Numbered from the whole stretch's first letter, positions 2,184 through 21,491 are shown. The stretch: 55,112 bases of DNA, filler included, from an uncultured virus (IMG/VR IMGVR_UViG_3300005239_003333) (5 parts of one record of this genome joined end to end with filler, not necessarily neighbours in it); one strand, 5' to 3'. The notes: generated by a model not told the origin, from the letters alone. Translations and numbers: made by a program.

Positions 2184-3038
2184 CTATACATCTAGGCCTG
2201 CTAGCAAATCTTGAATATCTTCATCATCGCTCTGTGCAGCAACGGTTTTAGTCTCTACTACAGGTTCAGGAGCGGCAGTAGTTACTGCTGCTGGTGTTGC
2301 AACTACTGCAGGTTCAGAGCGCTGGGCGTCAGAATCTTGACAATAGATATGCTCATCAACCATTTGCTTAAGATCATCATACCCCTTAATAGTAAATACA
2401 GAATCTAACTCAATAGCTTTATTGAAGATACCTTCATGGTCATCATCAGTCATACCCTTTACTTCAGTAGGGAAAGAGAACTTTGAAGAAACGTAAGTCG
2501 GAAAGTCACCTTGCTTCTCTACGATAACTTTAAAGTTAACTCCATTAGGGGATAAGTCAAAGATACGAGGACCGAGATCACTAGCATCTTCACCGTCAAT
2601 AGCACTAGCAATAACCTTATGTAATTGCTTACCATACCGTAAAGTCATTACCTTACCGTTATTATCAGGATTTACAGGGTCGTTTACAACATAAACATTT
2701 ACCAACCATTTTTCAGATCTAATAATCTTACTAGCCATTTGCTTCTCTTCATCATTACCACGATATAGCTTATATCGAGTTTCGGCAATCGGATCACGGT
2801 CACCAAACGTTTGAGGAGAAATAGCACTCACATACTGGCCAGTAGAAAAGCTACTCCAGCCATGCTGAAAATAATGGAAGAAGGTCTTAGAAGGATCCTT
2901 CGCGAACGGCAACAAACGAACCGTGTATGTATTACCCGGCTCGGTTCTGAGAATGTCTGCAGGACCGCTAGACTTCTCTTCTGTAGACGCAAGTGCGCCT
3001 TTAATCGATTCAAACATTGAACTTGTTATATTACTCAT
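2184..3038 (-). CDS. gp32: single-stranded DNA-binding protein (T4 gp32-like)
   Basis: VRLLP, NVYVVNDPVNPDNNGKV, YGKQL, FDLS..G.NF, Y.SSKF motifs; acidic C-terminal tail (DDEDIQDLLAGLDV). Confidence 0.9.
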   Translation of the reverse strand: MSNITSSMFESIKGALASTEEKSSGPADILRTEPGNTYTVRLLPFAKDPSKTFFHYFQHGWSSFSTGQYVSAISPQTFGDRDPIAETRYKLYRGNDEEKQMASKIIRSEKWLVNVYVVNDPVNPDNNGKVMTLRYGKQLHKVIASAIDGEDASDLGPRIFDLSPNGVNFKVIVEKQGDFPTYVSSKFSFPTEVKGMTDDDHEGIFNKAIELDSVFTIKGYDDLKQMVDEHIYCQDSDAQRSEPAVVATPAAVTTAAPEPVVETKTVAAQSDDEDIQDLLAGLDV

Positions 3039-3058: not shown

Positions 3059-3280
3059 CTACCTGTTTTCAACGTATTTCCTAAATAAATTAACATTTTT
3101 TTTCATTCGAGTAGATGAATACATTTTTGTTCTAAGATAGTCTATCTTTAACAGTGCAGGCGCTAGTAGTTTTTTTACATCCGGACTTACGCTCTGTACA
3201 ATCTGTTCAAAGTTCGGAAAAGCGAACAGAACATAGACACTTACCTTTCTGTCTTTGATATGACTAAGAAAGAATAATAA
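3059..3280 (-). CDS. C-terminal fragment of a divergent allele of the 3926-4561 gene
   Basis: FLSHIKDRKVSVYVLFAFPNFE...KMYSSTRMKKNVNLF aligns with FLNHLKDRKINIYILFAFKNFE...KMYSSGQMKKNVNLF; truncated by N gap. Confidence 0.75.
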   Translation of the reverse strand, partial: LLFFLSHIKDRKVSVYVLFAFPNFEQIVQSVSPDVKKLLAPALLKIDYLRTKMYSSTRMKKNVNLFRKYVENR

Positions 3281-3300
3281 NNNNNNNNNNNNNNNNNNNN

Positions 3301-3905
3301 TCATGGTCATCATCAGTCATACCCTTTACTTCAGTAGGGAAAGAGAACTTTGAAGAAACGTAAGTCGGAAAGTCACCTTGCTTCTCTACGATAACTTTAA
3401 AGTTAACTCCATTAGGGGATAAGTCAAAGATACGAGGACCGAGATCACTAGCATCTTCACCGTCAATAGCACTAGCAATAACCTTATGTAATTGCTTACC
3501 GTATCGTAAAGTCATTACCTTACCGTTATTATCAGGATTTACAGGGTCGTTTACAACATAAACATTTACCAACCATTTTTCAGATCTAATAATCTTACTA
3601 GCCATTTGCTTTTCTTCATCATTACCACGATATAGCTTATATCGAGTTTCGGCAATCGGATCACGGTCACCAAACGTTTGAGGAGAAATAGCACTCACAT
3701 ACTGACCAGTAGAAAAGCTACTCCAGCCATGCTGAAAATAATGGAAGAAGGTCTTAGAAGGATCCTTCGCGAACGGCAACAAACGAACCGTATATGTATT
3801 ACCCGGCTCGGTTCTGAGAATGTCTGCAGGACCGCTAGACTTCTCTTCAGTAGACGCAAGAGCGCCTTTAATCGATTCAAACATTGAACTTGTTATATTA
3901 CTCAT
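3301..3905 (-). repeat. gp32: second near-identical partial copy of gp32 (duplicates ~2434-3038), probably an assembly haplotype
   Basis: Identical protein over ~200 aa with only a few synonymous substitutions; ends at a 20-N gap. Confidence 0.85.
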
Positions 3906-4565: not shown

Positions 4566-4853
4566 TTATAATAAAGGCGTTTTTAACTTATTCAAGTACT
4601 TTGTTATATATTTACTCTTAGTAATTGATGGCTCAGCTTCTATAAACTTCCGAATAGCCACAAATTCGCTATCTTCGTTTATATGTTTCATATATATTTC
4701 TCGTAGCTTTTTATTTTCGAGAATTTTTAGAAAAACTGTCGGGTAGTTCATTTTTTTACCATTGAGTAGAGAGACAAATGTACAAAAAGATAGAAAAGCA
4801 TGTTGAAATTCAGCATTTTCTATATTTTGGGTTGGTATACCGTCTATTATCAT
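4566..4853 (-). CDS. hypothetical protein
   Basis: 95-aa ORF overlapping upstream gene stop. Confidence 0.55.
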   Translation of the reverse strand: MIIDGIPTQNIENAEFQHAFLSFCTFVSLLNGKKMNYPTVFLKILENKKLREIYMKHINEDSEFVAIRKFIEAEPSITKSKYITKYLNKLKTPLL

Positions 4854-5193
4854 GTTAATGGGTTTAAAAGTTTTGTTAGGTTTAAAATTTTATCGTTGAG
4901 TAAACAGCCTGCTACTGTAGCCTTCCCACCGCCAATCGACAGCTGTTTAGCTAGCTTACCGAGATCCATGTCACATTCCTCATTCTTCCTTAGAATAACT
5001 ATCTCATTTTCGAGATTTATTAATAAAACTATATCTACTACTAAATTATATTTTTTAAAAATATAGTTAGCCAATAAATTGGGATTTTCATTAAAAAATA
5101 CACCAGCCACCCCATAATCCTTGTCACCTAGTGTGATTTTATTGTGAAAAATGTCTCCATCGAAGGTATATTCTTCCAGTAGATTATATTCAT
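4850..5193 (-). CDS. C-terminal part of DHH/DHHA1-family phosphoesterase-like protein (5' truncated)
   Basis: DLGKLAKQLSIGGGKATVAG resembles the DHHA1 GGGHxxAAG motif. Confidence 0.5.
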
Positions 5194-5293
5194 NNNNNNN
5201 NNNNNNNNNNNNNNNNNNNNNNNNNNNNNNNNNNNNNTTAATTAATTAANNNNNNNNNNNNNNNNNNNNNNNNNNNNNNNNNNNNNNNNNNNN
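5194..5293. other. artificial contig linker
   Basis: 100 nt of N with a central TTAATTAATTAA (stops in all frames). Confidence 0.97.
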
Positions 5294-5472
5294 ATTAGCG
5301 ATCCAAAAAAACTTTAATTGGATTAATAGATAAAGTTAGAATGTTAGATAACGATATGATTCGTTTGAATATAAAGCTTAAGATGATTCTTCAAGAAAAA
5401 GAGAGAAGGCAAATACTCGAAGACGCATATAAAAGAAAAGAAGACGAGCTGTTGAAAAAAATTAAAAAGTAG
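5294..5472 (+). CDS. 3' part of small coiled-coil protein directly upstream of csgF (5' truncated)
   Basis: Manual translation from 5311: TLIGLIDKVRMLDNDMIRLNIKLKMILQEKERRQILEDAYKRKEDELLKKIKK*; stop 13 nt before csgF. Confidence 0.55.
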
Positions 5473-5485
5473 ATAAGTAGTTTGT

Positions 5486-5929
5486 ATGAAAAAAGTACTG
5501 CTCTTTGTTATTTTACCGATAACTTTACTCGGGAATGAGCTCAAATTTCAATTTAAGTCTCCGACGTTTACCGGTATTGGATATTCAAGTCATATCTTGA
5601 ATATAGAGAATATTTCCTTTACAAGAAAAACAAATATTACTGAAGAAGCTGAAGCGCTAGCTCTAAGATTATCATTATCAGAATCACGAAAACCTGAAAA
5701 TGTCTTTATGACTAATTTACAGTCACGAATTTATTCTGAACTGACAAAGCAAATTACAGAACAATTATTCTCCGAATCAGGAGCAACCGGTACATTTACA
5801 TTAGAGGATAGTACTATAACCTGGTCGCAAGATTCAGATAATATCTCACTAGAAGTTTTTGATATTTTAACAGGCAGTACGACAACAATTTTAATACCGG
5901 TTGGCTCGCTATATATACCAACCCCATAA
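5486..5929 (+). CDS. csgF: curli assembly protein CsgF-like
   Basis: Signal peptide then ELKFQFKSPTFTGIG (CsgF F.F.NP.FGG); F..NLQSRIYS.L; C-terminal TGSTTTILIP; directly upstream of CsgG. Confidence 0.8.
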   Translation: MKKVLLFVILPITLLGNELKFQFKSPTFTGIGYSSHILNIENISFTRKTNITEEAEALALRLSLSESRKPENVFMTNLQSRIYSELTKQITEQLFSESGATGTFTLEDSTITWSQDSDNISLEVFDILTGSTTTILIPVGSLYIPTP

Positions 5930-5930
5930 T

Positions 5931-6803
5931 ATGAAAGTTTTACTAGTTTTATCAGTTTTATTTGCTTCTGGCTGCGCTACTATGCCGGTTAGAAACGTGC
6001 CGCAAGTTGAGGATATACGAAGATATTCAATTGAAAACGGTAATTTTATTTGGCAAAACCATGAATATCCTAAATTAGTAAAGGGCCCTGTTTTTGTTGC
6101 GCCTTATTCTTTTGCAGATCATACAGGTCAGCGGAAGGAAGGAGACGCCTTTGCAAGCTTCTCCTCCGCAGTAACTCAAGGCGGGTACGCTTGGCTAGTT
6201 GAAGAGTTAATTAACGCTGGTAACGGTCAATGGTTTAGTGTATTAGAGAGAGAAAATATACAAAATGTATTGACTGAAAGAAATCTAATTAAAAGCACAA
6301 GACAAAGCTTCTCAGATGAAAAACTGCCAGATGTTAAGCCCATGCTTTATGCAGGTCTAATTATTGAAGGCGGGATTATATCGTTCGAAAGTAATTTCGT
6401 TACAGGAGGTGCAGGTCTATTTCATAAAGGTATAGGTATAGGGAAGCAATATAGAAAAGACGTTGTTACCGTATCCCTTCGCATGATTAATTCGCAGACT
6501 GGTCAAGTATTAATGTCAACGACGGTTTCTAAAACTATACTAAGTATAGGAGCACATTCAACATATTTTCATTATATCGACCTGGATACCGACCCTCAGT
6601 TAATCGAAGCAGAGTTTGGTGTATCAAATAATGAAAGAAGTTCAATAGCTGTTAGATGTGCAATTGCCGCGGCAATAGTAGATTTAATTAATCAAGGTCA
6701 TGAAAAGGGATTATGGGAGTTAGACATAACTGATGATCACAAGGTTAGCAGTAATGTGAATCTGTTGGATAATGATAATTATCTTATAAAAGTAGATAAA
6801 TAA
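5931..6803 (+). CDS. csgG: curli secretion channel CsgG-like outer-membrane lipoprotein
   Basis: Lipobox LFASGC from Met 5931; F.D.TGQRK, FSSAVTQG, WFSVLERE, NVLTER.LI, IIEGGII.FE, QYRKDVVTVSLR motifs. Confidence 0.9.
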   Translation: MKVLLVLSVLFASGCATMPVRNVPQVEDIRRYSIENGNFIWQNHEYPKLVKGPVFVAPYSFADHTGQRKEGDAFASFSSAVTQGGYAWLVEELINAGNGQWFSVLERENIQNVLTERNLIKSTRQSFSDEKLPDVKPMLYAGLIIEGGIISFESNFVTGGAGLFHKGIGIGKQYRKDVVTVSLRMINSQTGQVLMSTTVSKTILSIGAHSTYFHYIDLDTDPQLIEAEFGVSNNERSSIAVRCAIAAAIVDLINQGHEKGLWELDITDDHKVSSNVNLLDNDNYLIKVDK

Positions 6804-6807
6804 TTAT

Positions 6808-7545
6808 ATGAAACAAATAACACTACTTACACTCTTATTCGCTTCATTATTGCACGCTGATAATGAAATTTACATTGATCAGATCGGCAGTACTGGTAAT
6901 TATACGTTAACACAAATTGGTGACGGTAATCAAATCGGTTCAAGCGATGATATTGCCTATATTAACGGCGATAATAATATTTTTGCAATTACTCAGCTAG
7001 GTAATTCAAATGCTATTATCTGGGATACAGCAGGGGACGAGACATTAGTAGATATTTATACTGAAGGCGATTACAACTTACTCGACGTATATATCAATGG
7101 TGATAAGAACGACTTAGATATCAATCTTCTAGGTGACAGTAACTCGCTTATGATTGAAGGTTATATCGATGGCAACGCAGCCTTAATTTCAAACCAAGAC
7201 TTCGATCTTAATGTTTATGGAGCTGGTAACGCGTTTGATTTCAGCCTCAACGACACCACATTCTCGAAGGTTGATTATAATGTAATGGGTGGATTTAATA
7301 CTGTAACATCAATTCAAGAAGGTAACCCGGGTGGTATCGGACATATACAAATAGTTGATATTGCCGGTGGTAATAACTCAATAGATATACACCAATCAGG
7401 TCTTAATTCACAGGTATTTGAATTAACTCATATTGGTAGCGATGCAACATTTACAGTTATCCAATCAGATGGTTATTATAACACAGCAGATATTACAGCG
7501 CCTATTAACCCAATGGGTAATGGCGGTACAATTATTACTCCTTAA
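6808..7545 (+). CDS. curlin-like (CsgA/CsgB-type) secreted beta-solenoid repeat protein
   Basis: Signal peptide; multiple ~22-aa repeats with Q-x-G-x-x-N (DQIGSTGN, TQIGDGN, TQLGNSN, HQSG); follows csgG. Confidence 0.75.
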   Translation: MKQITLLTLLFASLLHADNEIYIDQIGSTGNYTLTQIGDGNQIGSSDDIAYINGDNNIFAITQLGNSNAIIWDTAGDETLVDIYTEGDYNLLDVYINGDKNDLDINLLGDSNSLMIEGYIDGNAALISNQDFDLNVYGAGNAFDFSLNDTTFSKVDYNVMGGFNTVTSIQEGNPGGIGHIQIVDIAGGNNSIDIHQSGLNSQVFELTHIGSDATFTVIQSDGYYNTADITAPINPMGNGGTIITP

Positions 7546-8521
7546 TTTATTATTAGTTAATTTATGCTTCGGTTCAATTGGTAAGGTAAGTTACCAGTCA
7601 CAGCCAGCGCAGATTACAAGAAGTAGTGAAAAGATATTAACTGAAAAAGGTACTTTAATAGAAATGAACGACGTTGTTGAGACACTCAATGGCGTCGTTC
7701 ATTTAGTGTTCGATGACAATACTAAGGTAAAGATTAAAGAGTATAGTGAATTAGTTATAGATGATTTTGTTTATGAACCTAAAACTAAAAAGGGTAAGCT
7801 TAGTTTAAAAGCCTCTCTAGGTAATATTAGATATACATCTGGTTTAATAGCTAATAAGGAAAATATAAAAATTAATACCCCTACTGCTTCAGTTTCAGTT
7901 AGAGGTACCGATTTCAATGTAACAGTTGCAGAGTCAGGTAAAAGCTCTTTTACTCTTCTACCGTCGACTGATTTAACCGGTAATTCCTATACTGGGCAGA
8001 TCGAGGTTAGTAATATATCCGGAAGCGTTCTCCTAACTATACCTTTTGAAAATACTGTTGTTGCGAGCATGGTATCGCCTCCCACTCCGCCAGTAGTTCT
8101 ATCTCGAACAATTATAAGCAGGATAGAAAAGCAAGAGAAAAAGGATAAGCAGAATGAAGATGACGGCGAGGACGAGGGGAAAGATGAAGGCGAAGATAAT
8201 GATGAGCCGGATGCAGAGCCTGAGCCAGAAGCAGATGGGCAGTCGGATATAGAAGAAAATATTAATGAAGAAGAGTTGGTAGAGAGAGAGGAAGAGATAA
8301 TTAAGATCGACGAAATTATAGTAACTAAAGAAGATGCTGGTTCAATCTTCACCGAGATAGATAATAAAATATATTTTTTAGCTGACGAAAATCAAAATAA
8401 AGTTAGCGTATCTTTCGATTCATCCGCGTCCGTAACTGTAAACTACGAAAATCAAGGCAATATTATATCAGGTAGCCATAACAGCGGTGGACAAGTAATT
8501 ATAAATATTAATCAACAATGA
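7520..8521 (+). CDS. periplasmic FecR-domain protein with acidic linker
   Basis: Signal peptide from Met 7520; D.VET, F.D.T.V.I.E.S.L.ID.F.Y, TPTASVSVRGTDF FecR signature; D/E-rich segment. Confidence 0.85.
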   Translation: MAVQLLLLNLLLVNLCFGSIGKVSYQSQPAQITRSSEKILTEKGTLIEMNDVVETLNGVVHLVFDDNTKVKIKEYSELVIDDFVYEPKTKKGKLSLKASLGNIRYTSGLIANKENIKINTPTASVSVRGTDFNVTVAESGKSSFTLLPSTDLTGNSYTGQIEVSNISGSVLLTIPFENTVVASMVSPPTPPVVLSRTIISRIEKQEKKDKQNEDDGEDEGKDEGEDNDEPDAEPEPEADGQSDIEENINEEELVEREEEIIKIDEIIVTKEDAGSIFTEIDNKIYFLADENQNKVSVSFDSSASVTVNYENQGNIISGSHNSGGQVIININQQ

Positions 8522-10566
8522 AACTAAACAAATTTAAACCATTCCTATACTGTGCAGTAGCGGCAATCTTATTTTCTGCGCTAAGAATATACGACCCATA
8601 TCCTGTTGAAATTTTAAGACTAAAAGGTCTAGACTATTATCAAAAAACGCAGAATATTAGACAGTCTGAGCTCTTTACAATAGTAGAGCTAGATGAAGCT
8701 AGTCTAGAGAAGCACGGCCAATGGCCATGGCATAGAGGAATACTTTCCCATTATATAGAAAAGGCTTATATGAATGGAGCTGCTCTTGTTGTGGTACCAA
8801 TTTTATTTGCTGAAGAAGACAGGCTAGGGGGAGACAATATATTTGCAGATACATTATACAACTACCCTGTAGTTACAGCTCAATCAGCAGCTATACAAGG
8901 TAAAGGTAAGCTCTTATCTCAAAAAATAACTGCTATAGGTTCAGTTGAGCTAACAGATTGGGTATATGACTACCCAAACGGTATAGGACCGATCGATAGC
9001 GTTGGTCTTAACGCGCGAGGTATAGGTATGACCGTTACCGCCCCGGAGCTCGATGGTGTTGTACGCCGGATGCCTTTGATGATACAAGTTAAGGGTGAGG
9101 TATATCCGACACTACCACTTGAAGTGTTAAGAGTTTTAGTTGGTGATACGTCTTATCAGGTAAAGACAGACCATGCAGGTGTTGAAGTTATTCGAATAAA
9201 GAATGTAGGTACATTTGATACAGATGAAAATGCAAGAGTTTGGATAAACTACGATACAGAGTTTGATAAAATATCAGTCGTCGACGAAGATTGGTCAAAA
9301 GTTCAAGACCGTATAGTAGTTATAGCGTTAACAGCTGAAGGTCTATCTAATTCAGTAGCTACCCCAATTAAAGTCAGTAACGGTCACGAGCTCAATATGC
9401 AGGTTATTGAAACTCTTGCTAATGATAATATATTAAACAGGCCAGTCGAATCAACTCTATATGAAATAGTCTTTACATTAGTGCTGAGCTTAGGGTTAAC
9501 GCTATGTGCCCTTAATTTTCTATGGGTTATTAACGCAATACTAATAAGTGCTGTAACTATTACTTTACCGGTATATGGGTTTTGGTTATTTAGTAAGCAT
9601 AATCTTTTAATAGATTTTACTTTTCCTGTTTATAGTTCCTTTATTATATTTACTATAGCAATATTTCTTAGATTTATACATGAATATAAGGGTAAGATGT
9701 TAATTAAGAAACAATTTGAGCATTATTTAGCTCCTGAAATAGTTAAAAAACTTCAAAAGAACCCTAATATGCTAAAACTTGGAGGAGATACACAAGACTT
9801 AACTATATTATTTTCTGATATAAGAGGGTTTACGACTATAAGTGAGCAGTTTAAAGATAACCCCCAAGGGTTAACCTACCTTATTAACCGATATCTAACT
9901 CCTATGACCCGCATAGTAATGGAGTCTGGTGGTACGATAGACAAATATATTGGAGATGCTTTAATGGCATTTTGGAATGCACCTTTACCTGAAGATCAAT
10001 TATCTCATCGAGTAAGAGCAATTGAAGTTGCAATAAAAATGCAATTAGAATTAACTAACCTTAATATCCAGTTAATTGAAGAAGGTAAGAAACCATTAGC
10101 AATAGGTATTGGTATTAATACAGGTAGAGTTGTTGTAGGTAATATGGGTTCAGATCAAAGATTTGATTATACGTGCTTAGGAGATGGAGTTAATTTAGCT
10201 GCAAGACTTGAAGGGCAAACTAAAGCATATGGTGTGGGTATTTTATTAGGTGAAGAAACGGTTAAACTTATTCGTAGTAAATTTAAATTTATAGAATTAG
10301 ATAAAATTGCTGTTAAGGGTAAGAAAGAAGGTATAACAGTCTACACAGTATTAAATGACAAATTCAATTATATACTACATGATACATTCTTAAAGCATTA
10401 TAAAAATCGCGACTGGGTAAAGGCAGATAATACTCTTAATAAATCAATAAAGGAAAATACAGAGTTAGAATTCTACTATAATATGATGAAAGACCGGGTT
10501 GCTGATCTAAAGAGTAACGATCCTGGGGAAGATTGGGATAAGGTTTATAGAGCTACCAGTAAGTAG
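8518..10566 (+). CDS. CHASE2-domain membrane class III adenylyl cyclase
   Basis: TM-CHASE2 (LDEASL..GQWPW.R, DGVVRR.PL)-3TM-cyclase; catalytic FSDIRGFT, DKYIGDA, DYTCLGDGVNLAARLE including adenine-specifying K/D. Confidence 0.93.
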   Translation: MKLNKFKPFLYCAVAAILFSALRIYDPYPVEILRLKGLDYYQKTQNIRQSELFTIVELDEASLEKHGQWPWHRGILSHYIEKAYMNGAALVVVPILFAEEDRLGGDNIFADTLYNYPVVTAQSAAIQGKGKLLSQKITAIGSVELTDWVYDYPNGIGPIDSVGLNARGIGMTVTAPELDGVVRRMPLMIQVKGEVYPTLPLEVLRVLVGDTSYQVKTDHAGVEVIRIKNVGTFDTDENARVWINYDTEFDKISVVDEDWSKVQDRIVVIALTAEGLSNSVATPIKVSNGHELNMQVIETLANDNILNRPVESTLYEIVFTLVLSLGLTLCALNFLWVINAILISAVTITLPVYGFWLFSKHNLLIDFTFPVYSSFIIFTIAIFLRFIHEYKGKMLIKKQFEHYLAPEIVKKLQKNPNMLKLGGDTQDLTILFSDIRGFTTISEQFKDNPQGLTYLINRYLTPMTRIVMESGGTIDKYIGDALMAFWNAPLPEDQLSHRVRAIEVAIKMQLELTNLNIQLIEEGKKPLAIGIGINTGRVVVGNMGSDQRFDYTCLGDGVNLAARLEGQTKAYGVGILLGEETVKLIRSKFKFIELDKIAVKGKKEGITVYTVLNDKFNYILHDTFLKHYKNRDWVKADNTLNKSIKENTELEFYYNMMKDRVADLKSNDPGEDWDKVYRATSK

Positions 10567-10689
10567 TTACTTCTTTTTTCTATCCCTTAAATCTATATAA
10601 ACGTCCTTAAAAAGAAGGTATAATATACCTACACATATAACTGAACCGAAAATTTGAAACAGACTATTGAATATAAATTCAGCTATCAT
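10567..10689 (-). CDS. small single-TM membrane protein (40 aa)
   Basis: Manual: MIAEFIFNSLFQIFGSVICVGILYLLFKDVYIDLRDRKKK; ATGA overlap with upstream gene. Confidence 0.55.
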   Translation of the reverse strand: MIAEFIFNSLFQIFGSVICVGILYLLFKDVYIDLRDRKKK

Positions 10690-11168
10690 CTCTTACCCCC
10701 TGGTGTAAAGTAAAATCCAACTATCGCGCCCAGAGTGGCGATTGATACAAGAGAAATGTGTCCCGTTGTAATCGACGTGGTAATGTCTGCGCCAGAGGGG
10801 AATTTGATGAGCCCGAAGAGGATTGAGATTGCTTCTTTATTTTCTGGTGGGGTGAATGTGACGAGCTCGACTCCAGGGAAGAGGGTGCATAGAATTGAAA
10901 TGACTGCGAAGTTGCACATCCCGATAAGAGCAATGAGCCTGCGAGTACCACGAGTAAAGGCAGACGTGTCCGTGTTGGCTTCGCCGAAGACAGCTTTTTG
11001 GAATTCGATATCTGCTTTACCGAGCTGCATATCTCTAATAAGCTCTCTTCGCGCCGCCATATCTTTGGCGTCTGAAATACCCGAGAAAACGCCGCCAACG
11101 ATTTTGAGCATAGAGCCCATACCTGTTGCGCCGAGTGTTGTAAGTAGCATTGTAATAAGTCCAAACAT
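10686..11168 (-). CDS. membrane protein, possibly 3TM holin-like
   Basis: Three hydrophobic segments, short basic C-terminus (GFYFTPGGKR), late promoter upstream. Confidence 0.45.
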   Translation of the reverse strand: MFGLITMLLTTLGATGMGSMLKIVGGVFSGISDAKDMAARRELIRDMQLGKADIEFQKAVFGEANTDTSAFTRGTRRLIALIGMCNFAVISILCTLFPGVELVTFTPPENKEAISILFGLIKFPSGADITTSITTGHISLVSIATLGAIVGFYFTPGGKR

Positions 11169-11187
11169 GTCATTTTATTTTTTTATA

Positions 11188-11201
11188 TATAAATATTTAT
11201 A
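11188..11201. promoter_or_regulatory. palindromic bidirectional T4-type late promoter
   Basis: TATAAATATTTATA gives TATAAATA on both strands between divergent genes. Confidence 0.65.
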
Positions 11202-11206
11202 CCTAC

Positions 11207-11635
11207 ATGTCTATATTACGGAAACTTTTCAAACAACGCCCATCTACAGATTCTGATATATCTGCAAAAACGATAGCTATGTATCAGAATAAAATCTTAC
11301 TCCTTCAAAATCCAGACCGGTCAATGGAGCTGCCCGGTGGTCATATTAAAATAGGGGAACCATTGATGGTAGGCGCTGCTAGAGAATTTTATGAGGAAAC
11401 CGGATTAACGGTTAATTTAGTAAGAACAATTAAACAGCAGCCTAAGCGGGTCATATACTACGGTAAGTTGATTTCGCGAAATGTTAAAATTAGCGATGAA
11501 CATATTGGCTTTAAGTTTGTTAGTATAAATAATCTATATAAAACTAAGCTAAGTAAGAAAGCTTATAAAGACTTACTATTTTTAAAGACACCAAAAAAAC
11601 GAAAAGAAGATGATGACATTCAAGACATTTCATGA
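11207..11635 (+). CDS. NUDIX hydrolase
   Basis: Nudix box LPGGHIKIGEPLMVGAAREFYEETGL. Confidence 0.9.
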   Translation: MSILRKLFKQRPSTDSDISAKTIAMYQNKILLLQNPDRSMELPGGHIKIGEPLMVGAAREFYEETGLTVNLVRTIKQQPKRVIYYGKLISRNVKISDEHIGFKFVSINNLYKTKLSKKAYKDLLFLKTPKKRKEDDDIQDIS

Positions 11636-11807
11636 AAATTATGCTGATGGTAAAATAAAGGGTAAGAGTAAACCAGGTAGAGTTAAAAAATCTGGAGCTA
11701 GCTGTAAAGGGTCTGTTACTGAATTACGTAAAAAGGCAAAAAAATATGGCGGTGAAAAGGGCAAGATGTATCATTGGTGTGCAAATATGAAAGGTAGTAA
11801 AAAATGA
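11610..11807 (+). CDS. small basic protein, possible internal head protein
   Basis: N-terminus MTFKTFHE resembles the T4 capsid-targeting sequence; Lys-rich. Confidence 0.55.
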   Translation: MMTFKTFHENYADGKIKGKSKPGRVKKSGASCKGSVTELRKKAKKYGGEKGKMYHWCANMKGSKK

Positions 11808-12427
11808 ATTATGATGAATTAGCAGATGTTATTTTAGAAAGCGTCGAAGGTATTAAAGCTATAAAGCTACCTTACGCTTTGGATGCTCTAGAGCCTAGTA
11901 TAGATGCTGAGACGATGAATTTACATTTTAACAAACACTATAAAGGTTATGTTAAAAAATTAAATGCAGCATTACCAGCTACTAATAAGCAAGATTTATT
12001 GTCAATAGTTAAAAGGGCAAAATCTAAAAAAGATGCAATTCGTAATAATGCAGGAGGTGCCTATAATCACCAGTTATTCTGGAGTATGATGTCACCTGAT
12101 AGAAAGGCAATATCTGGTGATATAAAAGACTTAATTGAAAAACAATATAAGAGCGTTGAAGGCTTCAAAGCTAAATTTGTTGAAGAAGCTTTAGCTCATT
12201 TCGGTTCAGGTTGGTTATGGTTAGTTAAGAAGGGTAATAAACTTGAAATGATACCTACCAGCAACCAAGATAACCCTTTAATGGATTCAGACGTAACTAT
12301 ACTACTTGGTATAGATGTTTGGGAGCATGCTTATTATAAAAAGTATGGGCCTAATAGAGAAAAGTATATTAAGCAATTTTTGAAGATAGTTAACTGGGAT
12401 TATTGTAATCTTCAATTAACGCAATAA
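11804..12427 (+). CDS. sodA: superoxide dismutase (Fe/Mn family, Mn-type signature)
   Basis: LPY..DALEP, H..KH, NNAGGAYNH, FGSGW, NQD, DVWEHAYY. Confidence 0.93.
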   Translation: MNYDELADVILESVEGIKAIKLPYALDALEPSIDAETMNLHFNKHYKGYVKKLNAALPATNKQDLLSIVKRAKSKKDAIRNNAGGAYNHQLFWSMMSPDRKAISGDIKDLIEKQYKSVEGFKAKFVEEALAHFGSGWLWLVKKGNKLEMIPTSNQDNPLMDSDVTILLGIDVWEHAYYKKYGPNREKYIKQFLKIVNWDYCNLQLTQ

Positions 12428-13079
12428 CTTCATTCTTCATATAATTCAATCTTATGGGATACCACGTATCGTTAACTTTATTCTTATAGAATACAACCAA
12501 CCCGCTGCACTTTTTGCCGCTCATATTCTCATAAAGCATTGCATATATAGATAACTGTAACGCATATGTATTAAATTCACAGACACCTAAATGATCTAGA
12601 GGGGCTTTGAAAAACTCATTATAATCACTGACGAATCTAAAGGCTTTATTAGTCTTAAAGTCCCCTATATAAAAATGAGTTTTATTCTCATATAAAAGGT
12701 CAGCGGTACCCGCTACATTAATATCAACGTTATTAAGCTGTTCTTCGCACTTAAGCTTCGGAAATTTTTCAAATATATGCTCCCACTTTCTATATGAATC
12801 GTATAGAGATTGAAACTGCTCATCAACCTTACCTTCGGCTAAGAAGTCTTCCATAACTTTGTGAATATCTGTACCGTAATCACAAGCGCGGTTCTTCTCT
12901 CTTTCCCATTCTTCAAGAATAAAATCAACCGATACACCTTCTCGTTTAGCTACACGAGTAGCATTACCCATTTTATCAAATACCGGCTTATACTTACCTA
13001 TTAAGGTAGTTACAGAAATAAGCTCTTTACCAGTTTCTGTATTAATGTACTTATGTTTTTTCTCGTCGAAACTAATCAT
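12390..13079 (-). CDS. PD-(D/E)XK Cas4/RecB-like exonuclease
   Basis: SVTTLI, GT.IH, E, GTADL, DFKT, Y.LQLSIYA motifs. Confidence 0.85.
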   Translation of the reverse strand: MISFDEKKHKYINTETGKELISVTTLIGKYKPVFDKMGNATRVAKREGVSVDFILEEWEREKNRACDYGTDIHKVMEDFLAEGKVDEQFQSLYDSYRKWEHIFEKFPKLKCEEQLNNVDINVAGTADLLYENKTHFYIGDFKTNKAFRFVSDYNEFFKAPLDHLGVCEFNTYALQLSIYAMLYENMSGKKCSGLVVFYKNKVNDTWYPIRLNYMKNEVIALIEDYNNPS

Positions 13080-13087
13080 ATGTCTTT

Positions 13088-13131
13088 ATTATAGTATATA
13101 CCCTTGAAAATTCAAGTCTTTAGTATAAAAT
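13088..13131. promoter_or_regulatory. back-to-back sigma70-type promoters
   Basis: Minus TTGAAT-16-TATAAT and plus TTGAAA-16-TAAAAT; -35 boxes abut in CTTGAAAATTCAAG. Confidence 0.55.
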
Positions 13132-13138
13132 AATATAT

Positions 13139-13963
13139 ATGAGAATTGCAATAAGCGGATCAGGTAACCAAGGTAAATCGACTCTAATAAAAGACTTTTT
13201 AGCAGAGTGGTCTCAGTTTGAGACTGAGAGTCAGACATATAGAGACAAAATTACATCTGAAGATCTTCCCCATAGTATGGAGACCACTAAAGATACACAA
13301 TGGAAAATTCTTAATCATATGATCGACGAGATGCAAACGTTTAAGACAGATGATAATATTATTATGGATAGATGCCCGATTGATAATTTAGTTTATTCGC
13401 TATGGGCCTTTGAAAAGGGCATAGGAGATATCGATAAGGAGTTTATTGATAAGTGTATACCTCTTGTCTGTGAAAGTATGAGACATCTAGATATTATATT
13501 CTTTTTACCGATTACAAAAGCAGCTCCAGTCAAAATCGTCGATGATAAAATGAGAGAGACAGATCCTATGTATATTAAGGAGATTGATAATATTTTTAAA
13601 ATGATTGGCGCGCAGCACCATGAAAATAACGGCAAGAATCCTTTTTTCCCAAAAGATGATGCTCCTGGTTGGATTGAGATTTTTGGCCAACCTCAAGTAC
13701 GTATTGCTATGATTAAACAGTATCTAGATGTAGATGGTGATCTAATCGGTGGGACGGAAGAAAGTATGAACGAGCTTGTAAATCCACATGATGGTCAATT
13801 CCTTAATAAGGATACTCAAACTATGCAAGACCTCATCGATGAGCAAAGACAGACAATGGATTTCGAAAAAGAGCTAGCGCATCAAAAAGATCAGATTAAG
13901 CAAATGCTTGGCGATAAGGATATCGATCAGTTAACAGAAGAGTATAATAAAACTAAACGGTAA
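13139..13963 (+). CDS. P-loop ATPase / nucleotide kinase-like (AAA_28/NadR-type)
   Basis: GSGNQGKST Walker A; DRCPID; D..RE lid motif. Confidence 0.75.
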   Translation: MRIAISGSGNQGKSTLIKDFLAEWSQFETESQTYRDKITSEDLPHSMETTKDTQWKILNHMIDEMQTFKTDDNIIMDRCPIDNLVYSLWAFEKGIGDIDKEFIDKCIPLVCESMRHLDIIFFLPITKAAPVKIVDDKMRETDPMYIKEIDNIFKMIGAQHHENNGKNPFFPKDDAPGWIEIFGQPQVRIAMIKQYLDVDGDLIGGTEESMNELVNPHDGQFLNKDTQTMQDLIDEQRQTMDFEKELAHQKDQIKQMLGDKDIDQLTEEYNKTKR

Positions 13964-13964
13964 A

Positions 13965-14831
13965 TTATACAAATATTTCTTCAATTAATAAGTTCGATAT
14001 ACCGGTCGCGTCATTAGTCCCAGTTGCAGTGGCTCCACCACCGCTATTTTGATAGAAGTCATTACCGGATTCGAACCTTATTACTACTCTTATAAAGATA
14101 TTATTACCCGTTCCAAGGGAGGCTGGCGTGAAAATACCGCTGAAAGCTGAGGTTGCACCCTCATGATTGGTATCGGTACCGAGTATAGAGGTGCCGACTA
14201 CAGCACTACCATTAGTTTCGCCGAGAAAATCAACAACATCAATATAGTTACTATTATTAGGCGATTCTTGTACGACTAAAGCTACAGAATGGTTATCGAT
14301 AGCTGTACCAGGTACAGAAAAACTAACTTTTAATTTAGAATTTGAAGATTTTAAATTTACATTTGTAACTAGGTCCAACCCAACATCAGTAGCTCCATTA
14401 CCAGACCGTCTAGTTACCGGCTTATATATTACCTGGCTAATTGCTGGGTATCCTTTAAATTCATTACCATTAGCACTTAATGATCCTGCTGATAATGTTG
14501 TAAAAACAGCAGCACCATTGGAATCAATATTAAGATTACCTACAGAGCTTTCGAGAGCATCAACTTTTGTCGTCACTGCAGCTATATTACTATTACTAGT
14601 TGTAATACTACTAGCATTAGCTGTACTACGTGTAGTATTAGCTGCAACTGCTGCATCATTAGTGCTAAGCCCTGATAAAACACTAGCAAATGTTGTATTT
14701 TCAAGCCCTATTACAAAATCTTTAAAGTCTAATTTATTAGTCGCGTTTTCCGTCTGGACGATAACAAAATTACCAGATTCGATGCTCGTAATAGTGGGTA
14801 ATTGATCAATACTTTTTTCTGTGCTAGCCAT
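13965..14831 (-). CDS. virion fibre/structural protein
   Basis: IDQLP.ITSI.....VIVQ head motif, S/T/N-rich coiled segment, beta-rich C-terminal domain; TAAATA upstream. Confidence 0.55.
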   Translation of the reverse strand: MASTEKSIDQLPTITSIESGNFVIVQTENATNKLDFKDFVIGLENTTFASVLSGLSTNDAAVAANTTRSTANASSITTSNSNIAAVTTKVDALESSVGNLNIDSNGAAVFTTLSAGSLSANGNEFKGYPAISQVIYKPVTRRSGNGATDVGLDLVTNVNLKSSNSKLKVSFSVPGTAIDNHSVALVVQESPNNSNYIDVVDFLGETNGSAVVGTSILGTDTNHEGATSAFSGIFTPASLGTGNNIFIRVVIRFESGNDFYQNSGGGATATGTNDATGISNLLIEEIFV

Positions 14832-14859
14832 ATTAATTATTTATTATAAAATATATATA

Positions 14860-15693
14860 ATGTCAAAGATAGGAATAGGTATTGTTACATGTAATAGAAA
14901 TGATTTTTTAGATACATGTATTAATGGTATAGATTTGTCGGAAATAGATGAAAAGGTGATAGTTAATGATGGTAATATAGATATCCGTCATAGTCAATTT
15001 CATGTTATTAATAATGATAAAAATATAGGTGTAGGTAAATCGAAAAATAAAATCTTAAAATATCTCTATAAGAAAAATTGTGATTATATATTCATAATTG
15101 AAGATGATACTATTATTAAAGATAATAATGTTTTTAATCAATATATAGAAGCATCAAAAGTAACAGGTATTCAACACTTTAATTACGGGCCAGGTACCCC
15201 TTTTAATAGGAAGCAAAAACAAGAGTTCGATGTACATAACAGACATGAGCTCGATCAAGAATCTGAGCCTAATCCGCGAAAGATTATAGATTACGGTAGT
15301 CTAAAGATATCTCTATATGAACATGTCGCTGGTATGTTTTCTTTCTTTACAAAAAAGGTTATACAAGATGTTGGTTATATAGATGAAGATTTTTATAACG
15401 CGTGGGAGCATGTAGATCATACATATAGAATAATTAAAAAGCATTACCATCCACCTTTTTGGTATTTTGCAGATATTCATAATAGTCATAAATTTTTATC
15501 TGAACATAAGGATGCTATAGAAAAATCAGCTATTAGTAAAAATAGCCAAACATTTATAGATAACGTAAAAGAGGGTGCTAAGATATATTTTGAAAAACAT
15601 GGGCATGCCCCTAATAATCCTCCATATGTATTGGAGTCTGATGTAATTGAAGAGCTAAAAAAGATTAAACATGAAAATAGCATTAGCAGTTAA
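14860..15693 (+). CDS. glycosyltransferase family 2
   Basis: IGIVTCNR, VNDG, N.GVGKSKN, IEDD, GYIDEDF..AWEHVD. Confidence 0.85.
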   Translation: MSKIGIGIVTCNRNDFLDTCINGIDLSEIDEKVIVNDGNIDIRHSQFHVINNDKNIGVGKSKNKILKYLYKKNCDYIFIIEDDTIIKDNNVFNQYIEASKVTGIQHFNYGPGTPFNRKQKQEFDVHNRHELDQESEPNPRKIIDYGSLKISLYEHVAGMFSFFTKKVIQDVGYIDEDFYNAWEHVDHTYRIIKKHYHPPFWYFADIHNSHKFLSEHKDAIEKSAISKNSQTFIDNVKEGAKIYFEKHGHAPNNPPYVLESDVIEELKKIKHENSISS

Positions 15694-16513
15694 TACCTTT
15701 AACACTGATTTAAATCGTTTTAAACTAGCAAATCAATCATATGAAAAGTTAAATTCTTATGATAATGTCGATGTTTTTGATATACAAAAACCAGGTATAA
15801 AAGGTAAGTTTAAAACTATTGATAGAATAGAAAGATATTCCAATGATATTATTGAAGGTTCAACAAAAGAATTACCTTTCGTCAATGACCTGTTTAATAT
15901 AACTGCAGATATAGATTATGATTATTTTATTGTAACTAACGCAGATGTTATGATTAGTCCACGATTAATAAATTATATATTAGAAAAAGATATTACAGCA
16001 ATGTCTTGTTCAAGACTTGATATACAGCCTACAGCAAATATTAAAGATGATATGAAACCTGTAAGATGGGAAGTAGCAGGTCACGACACATTTTGTTTTA
16101 AAACAGATTGGTATAAAAAGCATAGTGTGTTATTTGAAGATTTTTTATTAGGTAAGCCAGCTTATGATCAGCACTATGCAGCGCTAATGAAAATTTTTGG
16201 TAATAATGATAGCTTCGGTAATAAAAACCCTGCATTTTGCTTGCATGAGCATCACGGTATAGCAGCTGTAACTACTAAAGATAAAGAGCAGGAATTTAAT
16301 TTCAAGCAATACGATAATTCAGAATTAGCCCAGACATATAAACATGTTTGGGATGATTATTTAAAAGAAGTCTTACTCAAGCGAACACCGTGGATGAGTT
16401 TTTTAAAAGAAGTAAATAATGAAAAAGAAATTGAAGAAGAATGGTTTGATAAAAAAATATCTAAACTAGCGGGTGTGATTAATAGTCATAAAAAGCAGTA
16501 TAATCTTATATAA
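15671..16513 (+). CDS. putative GT-A fold glycosyltransferase
   Basis: LPFVND, TNADV DxD-like motif, GHDTF, H.HH; in glycosylation cluster. Confidence 0.55.
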   Translation: MKIALAVNTFNTDLNRFKLANQSYEKLNSYDNVDVFDIQKPGIKGKFKTIDRIERYSNDIIEGSTKELPFVNDLFNITADIDYDYFIVTNADVMISPRLINYILEKDITAMSCSRLDIQPTANIKDDMKPVRWEVAGHDTFCFKTDWYKKHSVLFEDFLLGKPAYDQHYAALMKIFGNNDSFGNKNPAFCLHEHHGIAAVTTKDKEQEFNFKQYDNSELAQTYKHVWDDYLKEVLLKRTPWMSFLKEVNNEKEIEEEWFDKKISKLAGVINSHKKQYNLI

Positions 16514-17376
16514 TGAAAGAAAATTTAATTAAATCTAATCAAAAAATTATTGAATTAATAAATTCTAATCAACCTTTTACAGTTGTTCGACTAGGTATAG
16601 GGCCGGAGACAGCTATGTCATACGAGTTTTATAAGACTCATAAACTAAACTCAAACCATTTACATCCAGAGACCCGTACATTATACAATGCAGGTATATA
16701 TACGAGAGACGGAAATTTAGATAAAATGGCGCTGTTTTGCGGTCATTATTTACGAGCGATCAAATATAGTGACGCAATTGCATCCTTTTCGAAATTTATT
16801 GATAATGAAGAGAAATTCTTTAGTGAAGAATTTAATATACCTCAAATTAACTCTCGCTCTGTAGAGCCTTTTTACGCAGTTTTAGAAAATGAAATTCCAT
16901 GGACACATGCATTGAGTGGTAAGAAGGTTCTGGTAATACACCCCTTTATAGAATCATTTAAAAAACAACAGCAAAGTAATTTTCAATTATTTTCTGACTC
17001 TAGACTTTTTTTAGAAGATCAAGAGTTTGAATTTTACAAAACATTTCAAACTATAGCAGGTAATCATATACATAATGATTGGTTTGAAACATATAATATA
17101 ATGTGTAACGAAATTAATAAAATTGATTTTGATATAGCTTTACTCGGCTGCGGAGGGTATGGCTTACCTTTATGTAATTTTATAAAAGAAAAGCTGAATA
17201 AATCCGCGGTATATATTGGCGGTGGATTGCAATTGTTATTTGGTGTAACTGGTAGCCGATGGAATAATAACTTCTGGAAAGAATTGACTGATAAACATAA
17301 TATTAAATTTATTAGACCATCCGGAAATGAGATTTGCAGTAATTTACAAACCATAGAAAATGGATGTTACTGGTAG
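16513..17376 (+). CDS. GT-D fold (DUF1792-like) putative glycosyltransferase
   Basis: PWTHALSGKKVLVIHPF, DFDIALLGCGGYGLPL, IGGGLQLLFG..G.RW. Confidence 0.65.
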   Translation: MKENLIKSNQKIIELINSNQPFTVVRLGIGPETAMSYEFYKTHKLNSNHLHPETRTLYNAGIYTRDGNLDKMALFCGHYLRAIKYSDAIASFSKFIDNEEKFFSEEFNIPQINSRSVEPFYAVLENEIPWTHALSGKKVLVIHPFIESFKKQQQSNFQLFSDSRLFLEDQEFEFYKTFQTIAGNHIHNDWFETYNIMCNEINKIDFDIALLGCGGYGLPLCNFIKEKLNKSAVYIGGGLQLLFGVTGSRWNNNFWKELTDKHNIKFIRPSGNEICSNLQTIENGCYW

Positions 17377-17387
17377 AAAATTTAAAA

Positions 17388-18055
17388 ATGAAAATTAAAG
17401 CATATACTCTCTTTACCCCGTCACATGAAAGATTTTTAAAAGAATATCTTTTAGAATCTTTTGTATATAACCCTAAAATTGAATTAACTATAATTAATAA
17501 GCCGCAACTATGTGATAGTGCAGAATTTGCTTCCGACGGGTGGAATGCTACTATGAGATATAAAGCAGACTGTTTTTATGAAAATCTTAAACGATGTAAT
17601 GAAGATGAGATTTTTATGTTTATTGATCCAGATATTGTAATTTATAAAGATTTTACGGACGATATAATTGAACGAATGAAAGATAAAGATGCGGTATTTC
17701 AAAACGACGGGCCTGGCGGCGTTAATACAGGTTTCTTTGCTGTTAAAATAATAAAAAAACAAGAGCTTTTTTTAATACCGTGCTTGGAAATTTAGAAAAA
17801 TTTGAAGAAGAACAACAGACTACAAATTACCTACTAAGAAATTTAAATAAATTTCCAAGTATACAAATAAAATGGGAGTTCTTACCGAAGGAATATTGGA
17901 CATACGGTGAAATAGCCGGGGGTAGAGGTCATTGGGTTAGTACAGATGAGAGCTTTGAAATACCTAAAGATATTTTTATACATCATGGTAATTGGACCAA
18001 GACAAAGGATGATAAGTATAAAATTTTAGATATTGTTAAGAAAAGAGTGAAATGA
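17388..18055 (+). CDS. nucleotide-diphospho-sugar transferase (GT77-like), split by a probable sequencing frameshift near 17745
   Basis: FIDPDIV, NTGFF; adding one A in the poly-A run gives VKNNKKTRAFFNTVLGNLEKFEEEQ, continuing to HHGNWT. Confidence 0.7.
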
Positions 18056-18846: not shown

Positions 18847-18850
18847 ATAT

Positions 18851-19338
18851 ATGGAAGCAAATACACCAAAATTTTGGCCTAGTAAAGGCCATCTTAATTT
18901 AGATCAATATAATTTTATTAAAAATTTATTAAAAGATAAACATATTAAATACGGTTTAGAAACAGGATTTTGTACTGGTAGATCAGCTATCTCTGTTTTA
19001 ACAAATTGCCCGGATTTGAAAAAAATGATATCTATAGAAATTAATCTTGATTATGCTGGTTTAGGTGGAAGAGCTATGTCAAAAGTTCTCTGTGAAAATT
19101 TTAACTGTTATTCTGTAATCGAGTCTAATTCTAAAACGCAATTCTCTTCTAATTNNNNNNNNNNNNNNNNNNNNNNNNNNNNNNNNNNNNNNNNNNNNNN
19201 NNNNNNNNNNNNNNNNNNNNNNATTTACCCGATGTAAATAGGGCATGCGACGATTTTTACGAAAAAAATAAGGATATACTTATTAAGGATGAATGGAATA
19301 AAGATGGTAAAGGTTTTTGTATTTTTATTATAAAATAA
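18851..19338 (+). CDS. class I SAM-dependent methyltransferase (interrupted by N gap)
   Basis: LETGFCTGRSA motif I, ISIE; frame resumes after gap LPDVNRACDDF...IIK*. Confidence 0.65.
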
Positions 19339-19339
19339 T

Positions 19340-19368
19340 TTGATTAAGCTGGGGAACGTTCATATAAT
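19340..19368 (+). promoter_or_regulatory. promoter TTGATT-17-TATAAT containing GGAAC-N5-TATAAT
   Basis: GGAAC GTTCA TATAAT AGGTGT ATG. Confidence 0.6.
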
Positions 19369-19374
19369 AGGTGT

Positions 19375-19965: not shown

Positions 19966-19983
19966 AAAGTTTAAAAACTTTGG

Positions 19984-20346: not shown

Positions 20347-20351
20347 TTTAT

Positions 20352-21475: not shown

Positions 21476-21491
21476 TATATAATAGAGGTAT

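Follow-up and report, generated by a model that had tools for sequence, protein, structure and literature searches.

A viral curli cassette joined to a FecR-domain protein and a CHASE2 adenylate cyclase in a marine T4-like phage: a tentative surface-to-cytoplasm sensor

What use could a marine phage have for genes of the curli secretion pathway, and why would a receptor-type adenylate cyclase stand at their end? The question is raised by a 55,112-nucleotide stretch of DNA from an uncultured virus (IMG/VR IMGVR_UViG_3300005239_003333), called here the window in its whole length, in which five intact, co-directional and densely packed genes occupy positions 5486-10566. They encode CsgF-like, CsgG-like and curlin-like proteins, a FecR-domain protein and a CHASE2 cyclase, and the block is a further copy, in the five-gene variant, of the published viral curli cassette of pelagiphages. 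Our preferred reading, to which we give somewhat less than an even chance, is that the cassette is a minimal type VIII secretion system (T8SS; CsgG, CsgF and a CsgA-like subunit) fused to a bacterial FecR/CHASE2-cyclase pair, the FecR protein linking a surface structure to the receptor cyclase. A first-pass annotation of this DNA had proposed trans-envelope signalling by cyclic AMP (cAMP); our reading fits that idea and sharpens it.

Four of the five genes scored clearly above the Pfam threshold, and the same four have PHROGs families. They encode a CsgF-like protein of 147 amino acids (5486..5929, + strand; Pfam CsgF, E 3.8e-15; phrog_35372, E 3.2e-30), a CsgG-like outer-membrane lipoprotein of 290 amino acids (5931..6803, +; Pfam CsgG, E 6.6e-45; phrog_20175, E 2.1e-55), an exported FecR-domain protein of 333 amino acids (7520..8521, +; Pfam FecR, E 3.4e-10) and a receptor-type class III adenylate cyclase of 682 amino acids (8518..10566, +; Pfam CHASE2, E 4.9e-35, and Guanylate_cyc, E 9.6e-25; phrog_35576, E 7.2e-187). 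The fifth product, a curlin-like secreted beta-solenoid subunit of 245 amino acids (6808..7545, +), was recognised from its family profile and predicted fold. Pfam, profile and fold evidence together bear out the gene identities that the first-pass annotation had proposed. The junctions are as tight as it had described: csgF and csgG lie 1 nucleotide (nt) apart, csgG and the curlin gene 4 nt apart, the curlin and FecR genes overlap by 26 nt (taking ATG 7520 as start), and the FecR and cyclase genes share an ATGA overlap. The csgG frame can also be called from TTG 5901, ATG 5931 being the start that gives a lipobox, and the FecR frame from TTG 7433, ATG 7520 being the start that gives a leader, as in all relatives. 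Envelope targeting of the products held as well, with hydrophobic N-terminal leaders in the CsgF, curlin-like and FecR proteins (by sequence reading and simple hydropathy), a lipobox in CsgG and hydrophobic segments in the cyclase.

The cassette as a whole has been described before. The first-pass annotation had implied that csgF and csgG alone were known from phages, but FecR and the cyclase already stand with them in PMC9599517 (mSystems 2022). In the order given by that paper, a histidine kinase comes before CsgF, CsgG and CsgA/B, and FecR after them, frequently with a second curlin and an adenylate cyclase behind it; the arrangement is described from podoviruses as well as myoviruses, from each of the 65 GOV2.0 stations and from metatranscriptomes. 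FecR and the cyclase are interpreted there as regulators, and the term "CHASE2" is absent from the text. In PMC7029224, the curli cluster is recorded from pelagimyophages and its function described as unclear, and PMC9004378 suggests a part in the timing of lysis and notes that infected cells did not clump; the text of both contains neither "cyclase" nor "FecR". All three papers leave the purpose of the cassette open.

The carrier was identified from the window and from relatives of the block. Four linkers of the form N44-TTAATTAATTAA-N44 are found in the window, at 5238, 22477, 25668 and 53146 (spans 5194-5293, 22433-22532, 25624-25723 and 53102-53201), and there are further N runs. These linkers mark the window as joined scaffolds, hence the order and orientation of its segments are uninformative. 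The description of the whole stretch as one contig must therefore be given up; the five genes themselves share one unbroken segment, 5294-22432, in which the first N run is at 19155, and position 5294 is the first base past a linker. Other segments encode a T4-type portal, gp15, prohead protease, gp32 and ribonucleotide reductase. A near-identical block is present on IMG/VR contigs of 36-61 kb, and the sequencing runs listed as containing window DNA are marine or seawater metagenomes, with no RNA run among them. The phage origin supposed at first is upheld by two isolates, HTVC008M and Melnitz, that carry the block, and by IMG/VR contigs, up to 197 kb long, on which it also occurs. We conclude that the carrier of the cassette is a tailed, T4-like marine phage.

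How constant is the association of the curli genes with FecR and the cyclase? A blastn search with the 5.3-kb region against 50,697 phage records gave no match, and relatives were found by protein-level searches only. With tblastn, cyclase and CsgG sequences 38-40% identical to those of the window turned up in Pelagibacter phage HTVC008M as well as four Methylophilales Melnitz phages. A survey of IMG/VR centred on the cyclase yielded 63 viral loci, of which the 46 with at least 3.3 kb upstream could be judged. CsgF, CsgG, curlin and FecR genes, all co-directional, were present in 45 of these 46, 25 loci having the five-gene form of the window and 20 a six-gene form with a second curlin; the one exception is L048. 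Eight further loci, with 0.6-3.3 kb upstream, all begin with FecR or the second curlin gene. A survey centred on csgG, taken over the best 80 of at least 591 viral stretches and leaning to the window's own type, found FecR in 65 of the 65 loci with at least 1.9 kb downstream and the cyclase in 47 of the 47 with at least 4.3 kb. Some contigs are common to the two surveys. The trans-envelope idea depended on FecR and the cyclase being kept beside csgFG in related phages, and in the judged loci of both surveys they are. In two rearranged loci the cyclase lies upstream of csgF and is still kept, on the opposite strand in the first of them (L192:564-2615, - strand; L184:1-1077, + strand).

These counts bear on a reading in which two unrelated modules travel together, the FecR/CHASE2 cyclase being a self-contained periplasmic sensor that would reprogram the host through cAMP, and the curli genes something separate. 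Such a separation would agree with the FecR/CHASE2 pair standing alone in bacteria (see below), with a viral cyclase that is found alone (L048) and with the description of curli regions without cyclase (PMC9599517). It is at odds with the gene order, which is fixed and has stop codons that overlap start codons in 45 of 46 and 47 of 47 judged loci, with FecR following the curlin gene in 65 of 65, with a cyclase that stays nearby despite rearrangement (L192, L184), and with the resemblance of the FecR C-terminus to a curlin repeat. We consider it improbable.

The cyclase has the layout of a receptor: one transmembrane (TM) helix, a periplasmic CHASE2 domain, three TM segments, a cytoplasmic cyclase domain and a C-terminal tail of ~70 residues. 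Hydropathy gave hydrophobic segments at residues 6-24, 312-356 and 363-388, and Pfam CHASE2 covers residues 17-324; because of these segments, CHASE2 (~25-311) is placed outside the cytoplasm. In an alignment with Pseudomonas aeruginosa CyaB (3r5g), the catalytic residues D434, K476, D480, D550, N559 and R563 are all present, so that the metal Asp pair, the Asn/Arg and the adenine-specific Lys/Asp listed in the first-pass annotation are intact. The two metal Asp, the adenine-specifying Lys/Asp and the transition-state Asn/Arg are kept in 14 of 16 phage homologues. By this alignment, the protein is a class III adenylate cyclase with an intact catalytic site. In the cyclases of two other loci (L057:7965-10052 and L058:8007-10058), Ser replaces both the Asp corresponding to D550 and the Asn corresponding to N559, with the metal Asp, Lys and Arg kept; these enzymes may have an altered specificity or a weakened activity.

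The curlin-like protein was the only one of the five below the Pfam threshold (Curlin_rpt, E 0.038, 14.4 bits for a cut-off of 20.7). Among 17 relatives, six have Curlin_rpt at E <= 0.01, and a search of the PDB with the family profile returned Pontibacter CsgA (8c50, E 9.2e-5) first and E. coli CsgA (8enq, E 0.074) second. The AlphaFold2 (AF2) model is an all-beta solenoid of ~16 strands (predicted local distance difference test score, pLDDT, 82.8). Its best match among 48,161 PDB representatives was again Pontibacter CsgA (8c50_A; Z 18.8, 215 residues aligned, 20% identity, root-mean-square deviation, rmsd, 8.8); Foldseek returned nothing from the PDB at E <= 0.001, and weak beta-helix rows only. 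The invariant residues of the family cluster in the first and last coils, and a conserved ANEIY..Q motif directly follows the leader. The curlin identity is thus supported at the family level, and amyloid fibre formation by this protein is putative.

The rest of the curli pathway was looked for among the open reading frames (ORFs) of the window scanned against Pfam, mostly those of at least 100 amino acids. No Pfam match to CsgE or CsgD was found among them, as the first-pass annotation had remarked, and no CsgB was identified, a nucleator not being distinguishable from a subunit. PMC9599517 also states that csgE, csgB and csgD are lacking in viral curli regions.

This inventory has to be set against the reading put forward in PMC7029224 and PMC9599517, in which the genes form a working curli (T8SS) fibre system, with FecR and the cyclase as just its regulators; infected cells would become sticky or gain a shield ("sibling capture", exclusion of competing phages). 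CsgG, CsgF and a CsgA-like subunit are indeed all present and conserved, the conserved first and last curlin coils fit head-to-tail stacking, and the genes were reported at all 65 GOV2.0 stations and in metatranscriptomes (PMC9599517). However, no clumping of Melnitz-infected cells was reported in cytograms or by transmission electron microscopy (PMC9004378), and no CsgE, CsgB or CsgD was identified among the ORFs scanned. Moreover, a receptor cyclase with an extracytoplasmic CHASE2 is suited to an outside input, not to switching on its own operon, and the bacterial FecR/CHASE2 pair occurs without curli genes (0 of 80 loci, see below). We regard a fibre system with FecR and the cyclase as mere regulators as somewhat unlikely. 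It is compatible with our preferred reading, as fibres may both form and be sensed, and it stays the main rival.

The pore proteins can be aligned with those of E. coli. The CsgG-like protein matched E. coli CsgG (3x2r/6l7a) over residues 3-265 (phmmer E 2.6e-40), and its lipobox, FASGC, is aligned with that of E. coli. In the CsgF-like protein, a hydrophobic leader is followed by the motif FQFKSPTFTG, and this N-terminus aligns with "tfqfrnpnfgg" of E. coli CsgF (6l7a_J), the overall phmmer match being just E 0.25. On the strength of this motif, the N-terminal peptide of CsgF is predicted to insert into CsgG.

Upstream of csgF, the first-pass annotation had noted a coiled-coil gene. What the window retains of it is a 3' fragment of 57 codons (5299..5472, + strand), cut off by the scaffold edge at position 5294; the product is a small membrane protein that combines an N-terminal TM helix with a coiled coil. 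Two viral loci whose cyclase is 97% identical to that of the window (L003 and L004) reveal the genes lost at this edge. In L003, the full upstream gene encodes 103 amino acids (4644-4955) and is preceded by a paralogue of 119 amino acids; the pair spans L003:4285-4955, directly before csgF, and each protein consists of one TM helix and a coiled coil. A jackhmmer search found such ORFs in 105 viral loci; of the 200 in total, 170 lie at most 600 nt upstream of csgF. No Pfam family was found for these small proteins, and no kinase domain in the L003 pair. Their nearest named Atlas clusters are YvrJ (0.86) and Holin_BhlA (0.84), both weak leads, the others being viral hypothetical clusters. PMC9599517 labels the genes before viral csgF as histidine kinases, and the small TM and coiled-coil proteins may be what is meant by this label ("HK").

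Two explanations centred on the pore have been published. In the first, CsgG/CsgF would be a gated channel that times lysis, in a pinholin- or secretin-like manner (PMC9004378), which that paper argues from structural modelling and synteny; the Atlas clusters of the small upstream proteins point towards holins, weakly, with scores (0.84-0.86) below 0.9 and below the level from which the tool itself counts a match as more than a lead. We find this quite improbable: an outer-membrane pore cannot depolarise the inner membrane, and the curlin, FecR and cyclase genes are left unexplained. The second, that an ungated pore imports nutrients or cofactors for the phage, was proposed by the authors of PMC7029224 and PMC9599517 and agrees with the absence of CsgE. 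It seems to us very improbable, as it gives no role to CsgF, the curlin-like subunit, FecR or the cyclase, though these are strictly co-conserved. Both explanations, like that of two modules travelling together, account for fewer of the conserved genes.

Does the FecR/cyclase half of the cassette have a counterpart in bacteria? The phage cyclase has 602 confirmed relatives in bacteria, and for the best 80 gene content was recorded up to 7 kb from the cyclase gene; these are mostly from Alphaproteobacteria and 30-48% identical in the best segment, with rhizobial and Sinorhizobium loci among the closest. A FecR-domain ORF lay within this distance in 26 of the 80, immediately upstream and on the same strand in 11. 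HlyD was present in 32 loci, an ABC exporter in 31, OEP in 13 and Peptidase_C93 in 9, and any one of these or FecR in 50. In five of these genomes, each with just 2-4 FecR matches (15 places in total), 11 of the 15 places adjoin a gene confirmed by Pfam as CHASE2 plus Guanylate_cyc, the four others being in L235, L240 and, twice, L237. It is because of this last count that the pairing is not attributed to chance. Judged by gene neighbourhood, FecR and the CHASE2 cyclase are a conserved bacterial gene pair, and the statement that CHASE2 cyclases go with FecR-domain genes agrees with both counts.

The bacterial partners have an N-terminal FecR domain and a variable remainder, made of cadherin, Big_9 or RTX (L075, L104, L120), TPR (L108, L127, L129) or FG-GAP (L138) sequences, or of little else. 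The phage FecR protein is built likewise, its remainder being an acidic linker followed by a small C-terminal domain. In L120, a FecR-cadherin protein and the cyclase are followed by a complete HlyD, ABC and OEP set, and in L075 a Peptidase_C93 (BTLCP) gene precedes a FecR-RTX protein and the cyclase; we take Peptidase_C93 to be the family of LapG. The closest cellular relatives of the phage cyclase (L066-L145, e.g. L069, L098, L120 and L075) are often the last gene of ABC-HlyD(-OEP) operons for type I secretion, near which a Peptidase_C93 gene and RTX or cadherin proteins with a FecR head are encoded. In a literature search spanning part of PMC, no paper was found in which CHASE2 occurs alongside LapG or alongside "type I secretion", and this secretion and adhesin context of the cyclase family may be a new lead.

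Sinorhizobium meliloti provides the published precedent for an outer-membrane partner, such as the first-pass annotation had envisaged: its CHASE2 cyclases raise cAMP upon sensing a plant protein by way of NsrA, a beta-barrel in the outer membrane (PMC13001267). CyaD1 deprived of CHASE2 makes cAMP constitutively, and a FecR-domain gene, SMc02177, adjoins cyaD1 (PMC5498481).

We then consider the phage FecR protein, which would be the joint between the two halves. It consists of a leader (residues 1-18) directly followed by a conserved IGxV, a folded head (~21-181), a helix (196-214), a disordered linker (215-274) and a C-terminal domain (277-332). The mean pLDDT of the AF2 model is 74, reaching ~90 in the beta head and ~70 in the six-strand C-terminal domain. 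Residues 200-275 are acidic, with 34 D/E for 9 K/R. The head resembles that of PupR (6ovk_R; Z 15.7, 138 residues aligned; Foldseek E 1.8e-4), and residues 17-111 of the model resemble 5ix9 (Z 10.6, rmsd 2.2, 73 of 76 residues aligned; Foldseek template-modelling score 0.74 on the target). The latter structure shows RIN, a periplasmic domain at the N-terminus of MpIBP, an adhesin of Marinomonas; its size is described as too great for passage of the TolC pore, and the domain itself as a plug by which the adhesin stays on the cell (PMC5550230). The retention module of LapA was modelled on 5ix9, with a flexible unstructured stretch threaded through the pore (preprint 10.1101/198937). At the other end of the protein, an end-to-end alignment pairs the last ~33 columns of the FecR family with the last repeat of the curlins (hhalign score 19.7, P 0.0087). 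In 200 column shuffles this score was never attained (mean 9.9, maximum 18.4), and the signal came from the C-terminal 60 columns only. The protein is without a cytoplasmic anti-sigma domain and without a membrane anchor. The window ORFs scanned included neither a TonB-dependent transducer nor an extracytoplasmic function (ECF) sigma gene, and no RTX repeats, type I secretion signal or adjacent type I secretion system (T1SS) were found in the phage FecR protein or these ORFs. The combination of plug, linker and curlin-like end may be new, and is taken as a lead. An apparent closeness of the phage head to "unlinked" bacterial FecR heads was rejected as confounded, six of the nine "unlinked" places (L236, L238, L239, L241, L242 and L243) having turned out to adjoin other CHASE2 cyclases.

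Put together, these features suggest how the preferred reading could work. CsgG and CsgF would form an outer-membrane channel in the infected cell and export the curlin-like subunit. The FecR protein would reach the periplasm through Sec, where its folded head would remain, and its acidic linker and curlin-like C-terminus would make contact with either pore or fibre. Whether the surface structure is assembled, pulled, bound or lost would thereby be reported to the periplasmic CHASE2, which would set the cAMP output of the cytoplasmic cyclase. We infer all the protein contacts, the topology of FecR across the pore and the effect of cAMP on host or phage. The roles that the first-pass annotation had assigned (pore and curlin as sensor, FecR as relay, cAMP as output), and its suggestions that the module times lysis or detects superinfecting phage, are neither supported nor contradicted by these results. 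In a more specific form, which we regard as doubtful, FecR would be a pore-threaded tether, with its head in the periplasm against CHASE2, its linker through CsgG/CsgF and its C-terminus in the outer fibre, so that the fibre would serve as an antenna read as cAMP. The FecR head and CHASE2 cyclase would then be a general device linking surface-tethered proteins with signalling by cyclic nucleotides, used with T1SS adhesins in Alphaproteobacteria and with curli in phages. The CsgGF channel of Melnitz was modelled with a positively charged interior (PMC9004378), which would suit the acidic FecR linker.

A number of points weigh against our preferred reading. Contact between any two module proteins is presumed, and the tether would require that CsgG hold a stalled, threaded substrate and let it pass in a suitable direction. 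The scanned ORFs of the window yielded no domain binding cyclic nucleotide monophosphates (cNMP), i.e. no cAMP receptor. Some viral curli regions are without the cyclase (PMC9599517), so that FecR probably has a role independent of it; the cyclase of L048 (7953-10007), full-length with its CHASE2 and 44% identical, has no module partner within 8 kb. The likeness of the FecR C-terminus to curlin is limited to ~33 columns (P ~0.009), and the whole-length comparison of FecR with curlin by hhalign was insignificant (probability 1.3%). The phage FecR head scored 28-67 bits against adhesin-type heads and 67-79 bits against small FecR proteins; by these scores it has no special affinity for adhesin-type partners. 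None of the 80 bacterial loci has csgF, csgG or curlin near the cyclase, and by this count the curli link is phage-specific and without a cellular model. In 30 of the 80, none of the neighbours sought was present, 11 of these 30 loci being shorter than 10 kb. Finally, SMc02177 was reported to be dispensable for signal perception in S. meliloti (PMC5498481). As to the neighbourhood of the L048 cyclase, the sole Pfam match among eight neighbour ORFs scanned was a radical-SAM/SPASM protein.

As a sequence finding, the window adds one more copy of a described module. The cassette is nevertheless widely distributed among phages whose hosts are the most abundant bacteria of the ocean and have no curli genes themselves, and if it is a surface-to-cytoplasm sensor, phages would equip their hosts with a new sense organ during infection. 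The same logic, if true, would further account for a large and unstudied group of CHASE2 cyclases in bacteria, encoded beside adhesin-secretion genes, and the tether device would be an outside-in counterpart of the LapD/LapG system.

Transcription signals were also recorded. No terminator-like site was found in 5294-11300, where 3.2 were expected. Sigma-70-like sites numbered 31 (24.1 +/- 5.5 expected). Matches to TATAAATA, a T4 late-promoter-like sequence, were at chance level in L003 (6 for 5.6 expected), and all these counts are uninformative on timing. One of the TATAAATA matches, at L003:7983-7990 (~window 8500-8507), lies 11 nt before the start codon of the cyclase, within the end of the FecR gene.

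Several other genes of the window deserve a mention. Just past the cassette lie a NUDIX hydrolase gene (11207-11635) and, complete with both Sod_Fe_N and Sod_Fe_C, a gene for an Fe/Mn superoxide dismutase (11804-12427), which seems unusual for a phage. Auxiliary genes at 41535-43621, 27640-28086 and 47178-47630 encode a QueF-like nitrile reductase, a serine hydroxymethyltransferase (E 1.7e-151) and Hsp20. Next to the prohead protease gene, in the same segment as the portal gene, lies a gene for a TnsA-like endonuclease. Two large proteins of 683 and 1469 amino acids (28186-30237 and 30975-35384) carry the "grass antifreeze beta-roll" repeat (LbR_Ice_bind), and the larger one also matches tail-fibre PHROGs. 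A gene for a gp32-type single-stranded DNA-binding protein is found twice on the - strand, at 2184-3038 and 3264-3905. The N-terminal ~200 residues of the two copies are identical and a gap of 20 N separates them (N run 3281-3300), which looks like a duplication from scaffolding rather than two genes. In the window gp32 is on the strand opposite to csgF, but in HTVC008M and Melnitz both are on the same strand.

The closest known systems are the cassettes of the isolates HTVC008M (KC465899) and Melnitz (MZ577097), which have the same order of small proteins, CsgF, CsgG, curlin-repeat protein, FecR and cyclase. Their annotation reads CsgF, CsgG, curlin-repeat, FecR/hypothetical, second curlin-repeat/hypothetical and cyclase; the second curlin gene between FecR and cyclase is the one that the window copy does not have. 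At the protein level the window is 38-40% identical to them, in the same T4-like marine setting and likewise without CsgE or CsgD. The published pelagiphage cassette has FecR directly after curlin and the cyclase downstream, and this is the arrangement of the window. With E. coli curli (6l7a, 3x2r, 8enq), the phage block shares a CsgG homologous over nearly its full length, the FQFxxPxFxG motif of CsgF and, by family profile and modelled fold, a solenoid subunit of curlin type; it differs in having no CsgE, CsgB, CsgC or CsgD, in a subunit of ~16 strands whose ANEIY..Q motif directly follows the leader, and in the addition of FecR and the receptor cyclase.

On the side of FecR and the cyclase, the phage protein shares the FecR-domain fold with anti-sigma regulators of the FecR/PupR type (6ovk), but it has a leader alone, with no anti-sigma part or anchor. 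CyaD1, CyaD2 and CyaK of S. meliloti have the same CHASE2 plus class III cyclase architecture as the phage cyclase; their outer-membrane partner is the beta-barrel NsrA, not CsgG, and their output passes through Clr, of which no equivalent was found among the window ORFs scanned. The adhesins LapA and MpIBP share with phage FecR the fold of the plug domain and the plan of a head, an unstructured stretch and an outer part. Unlike them, phage FecR has a Sec leader and neither RTX repeats nor a T1SS signal, and its pore would be CsgG instead of a TolC-like protein. The inner-membrane partner of LapA is the cyclic di-GMP receptor LapD, whose counterpart in the phage is a cAMP cyclase.

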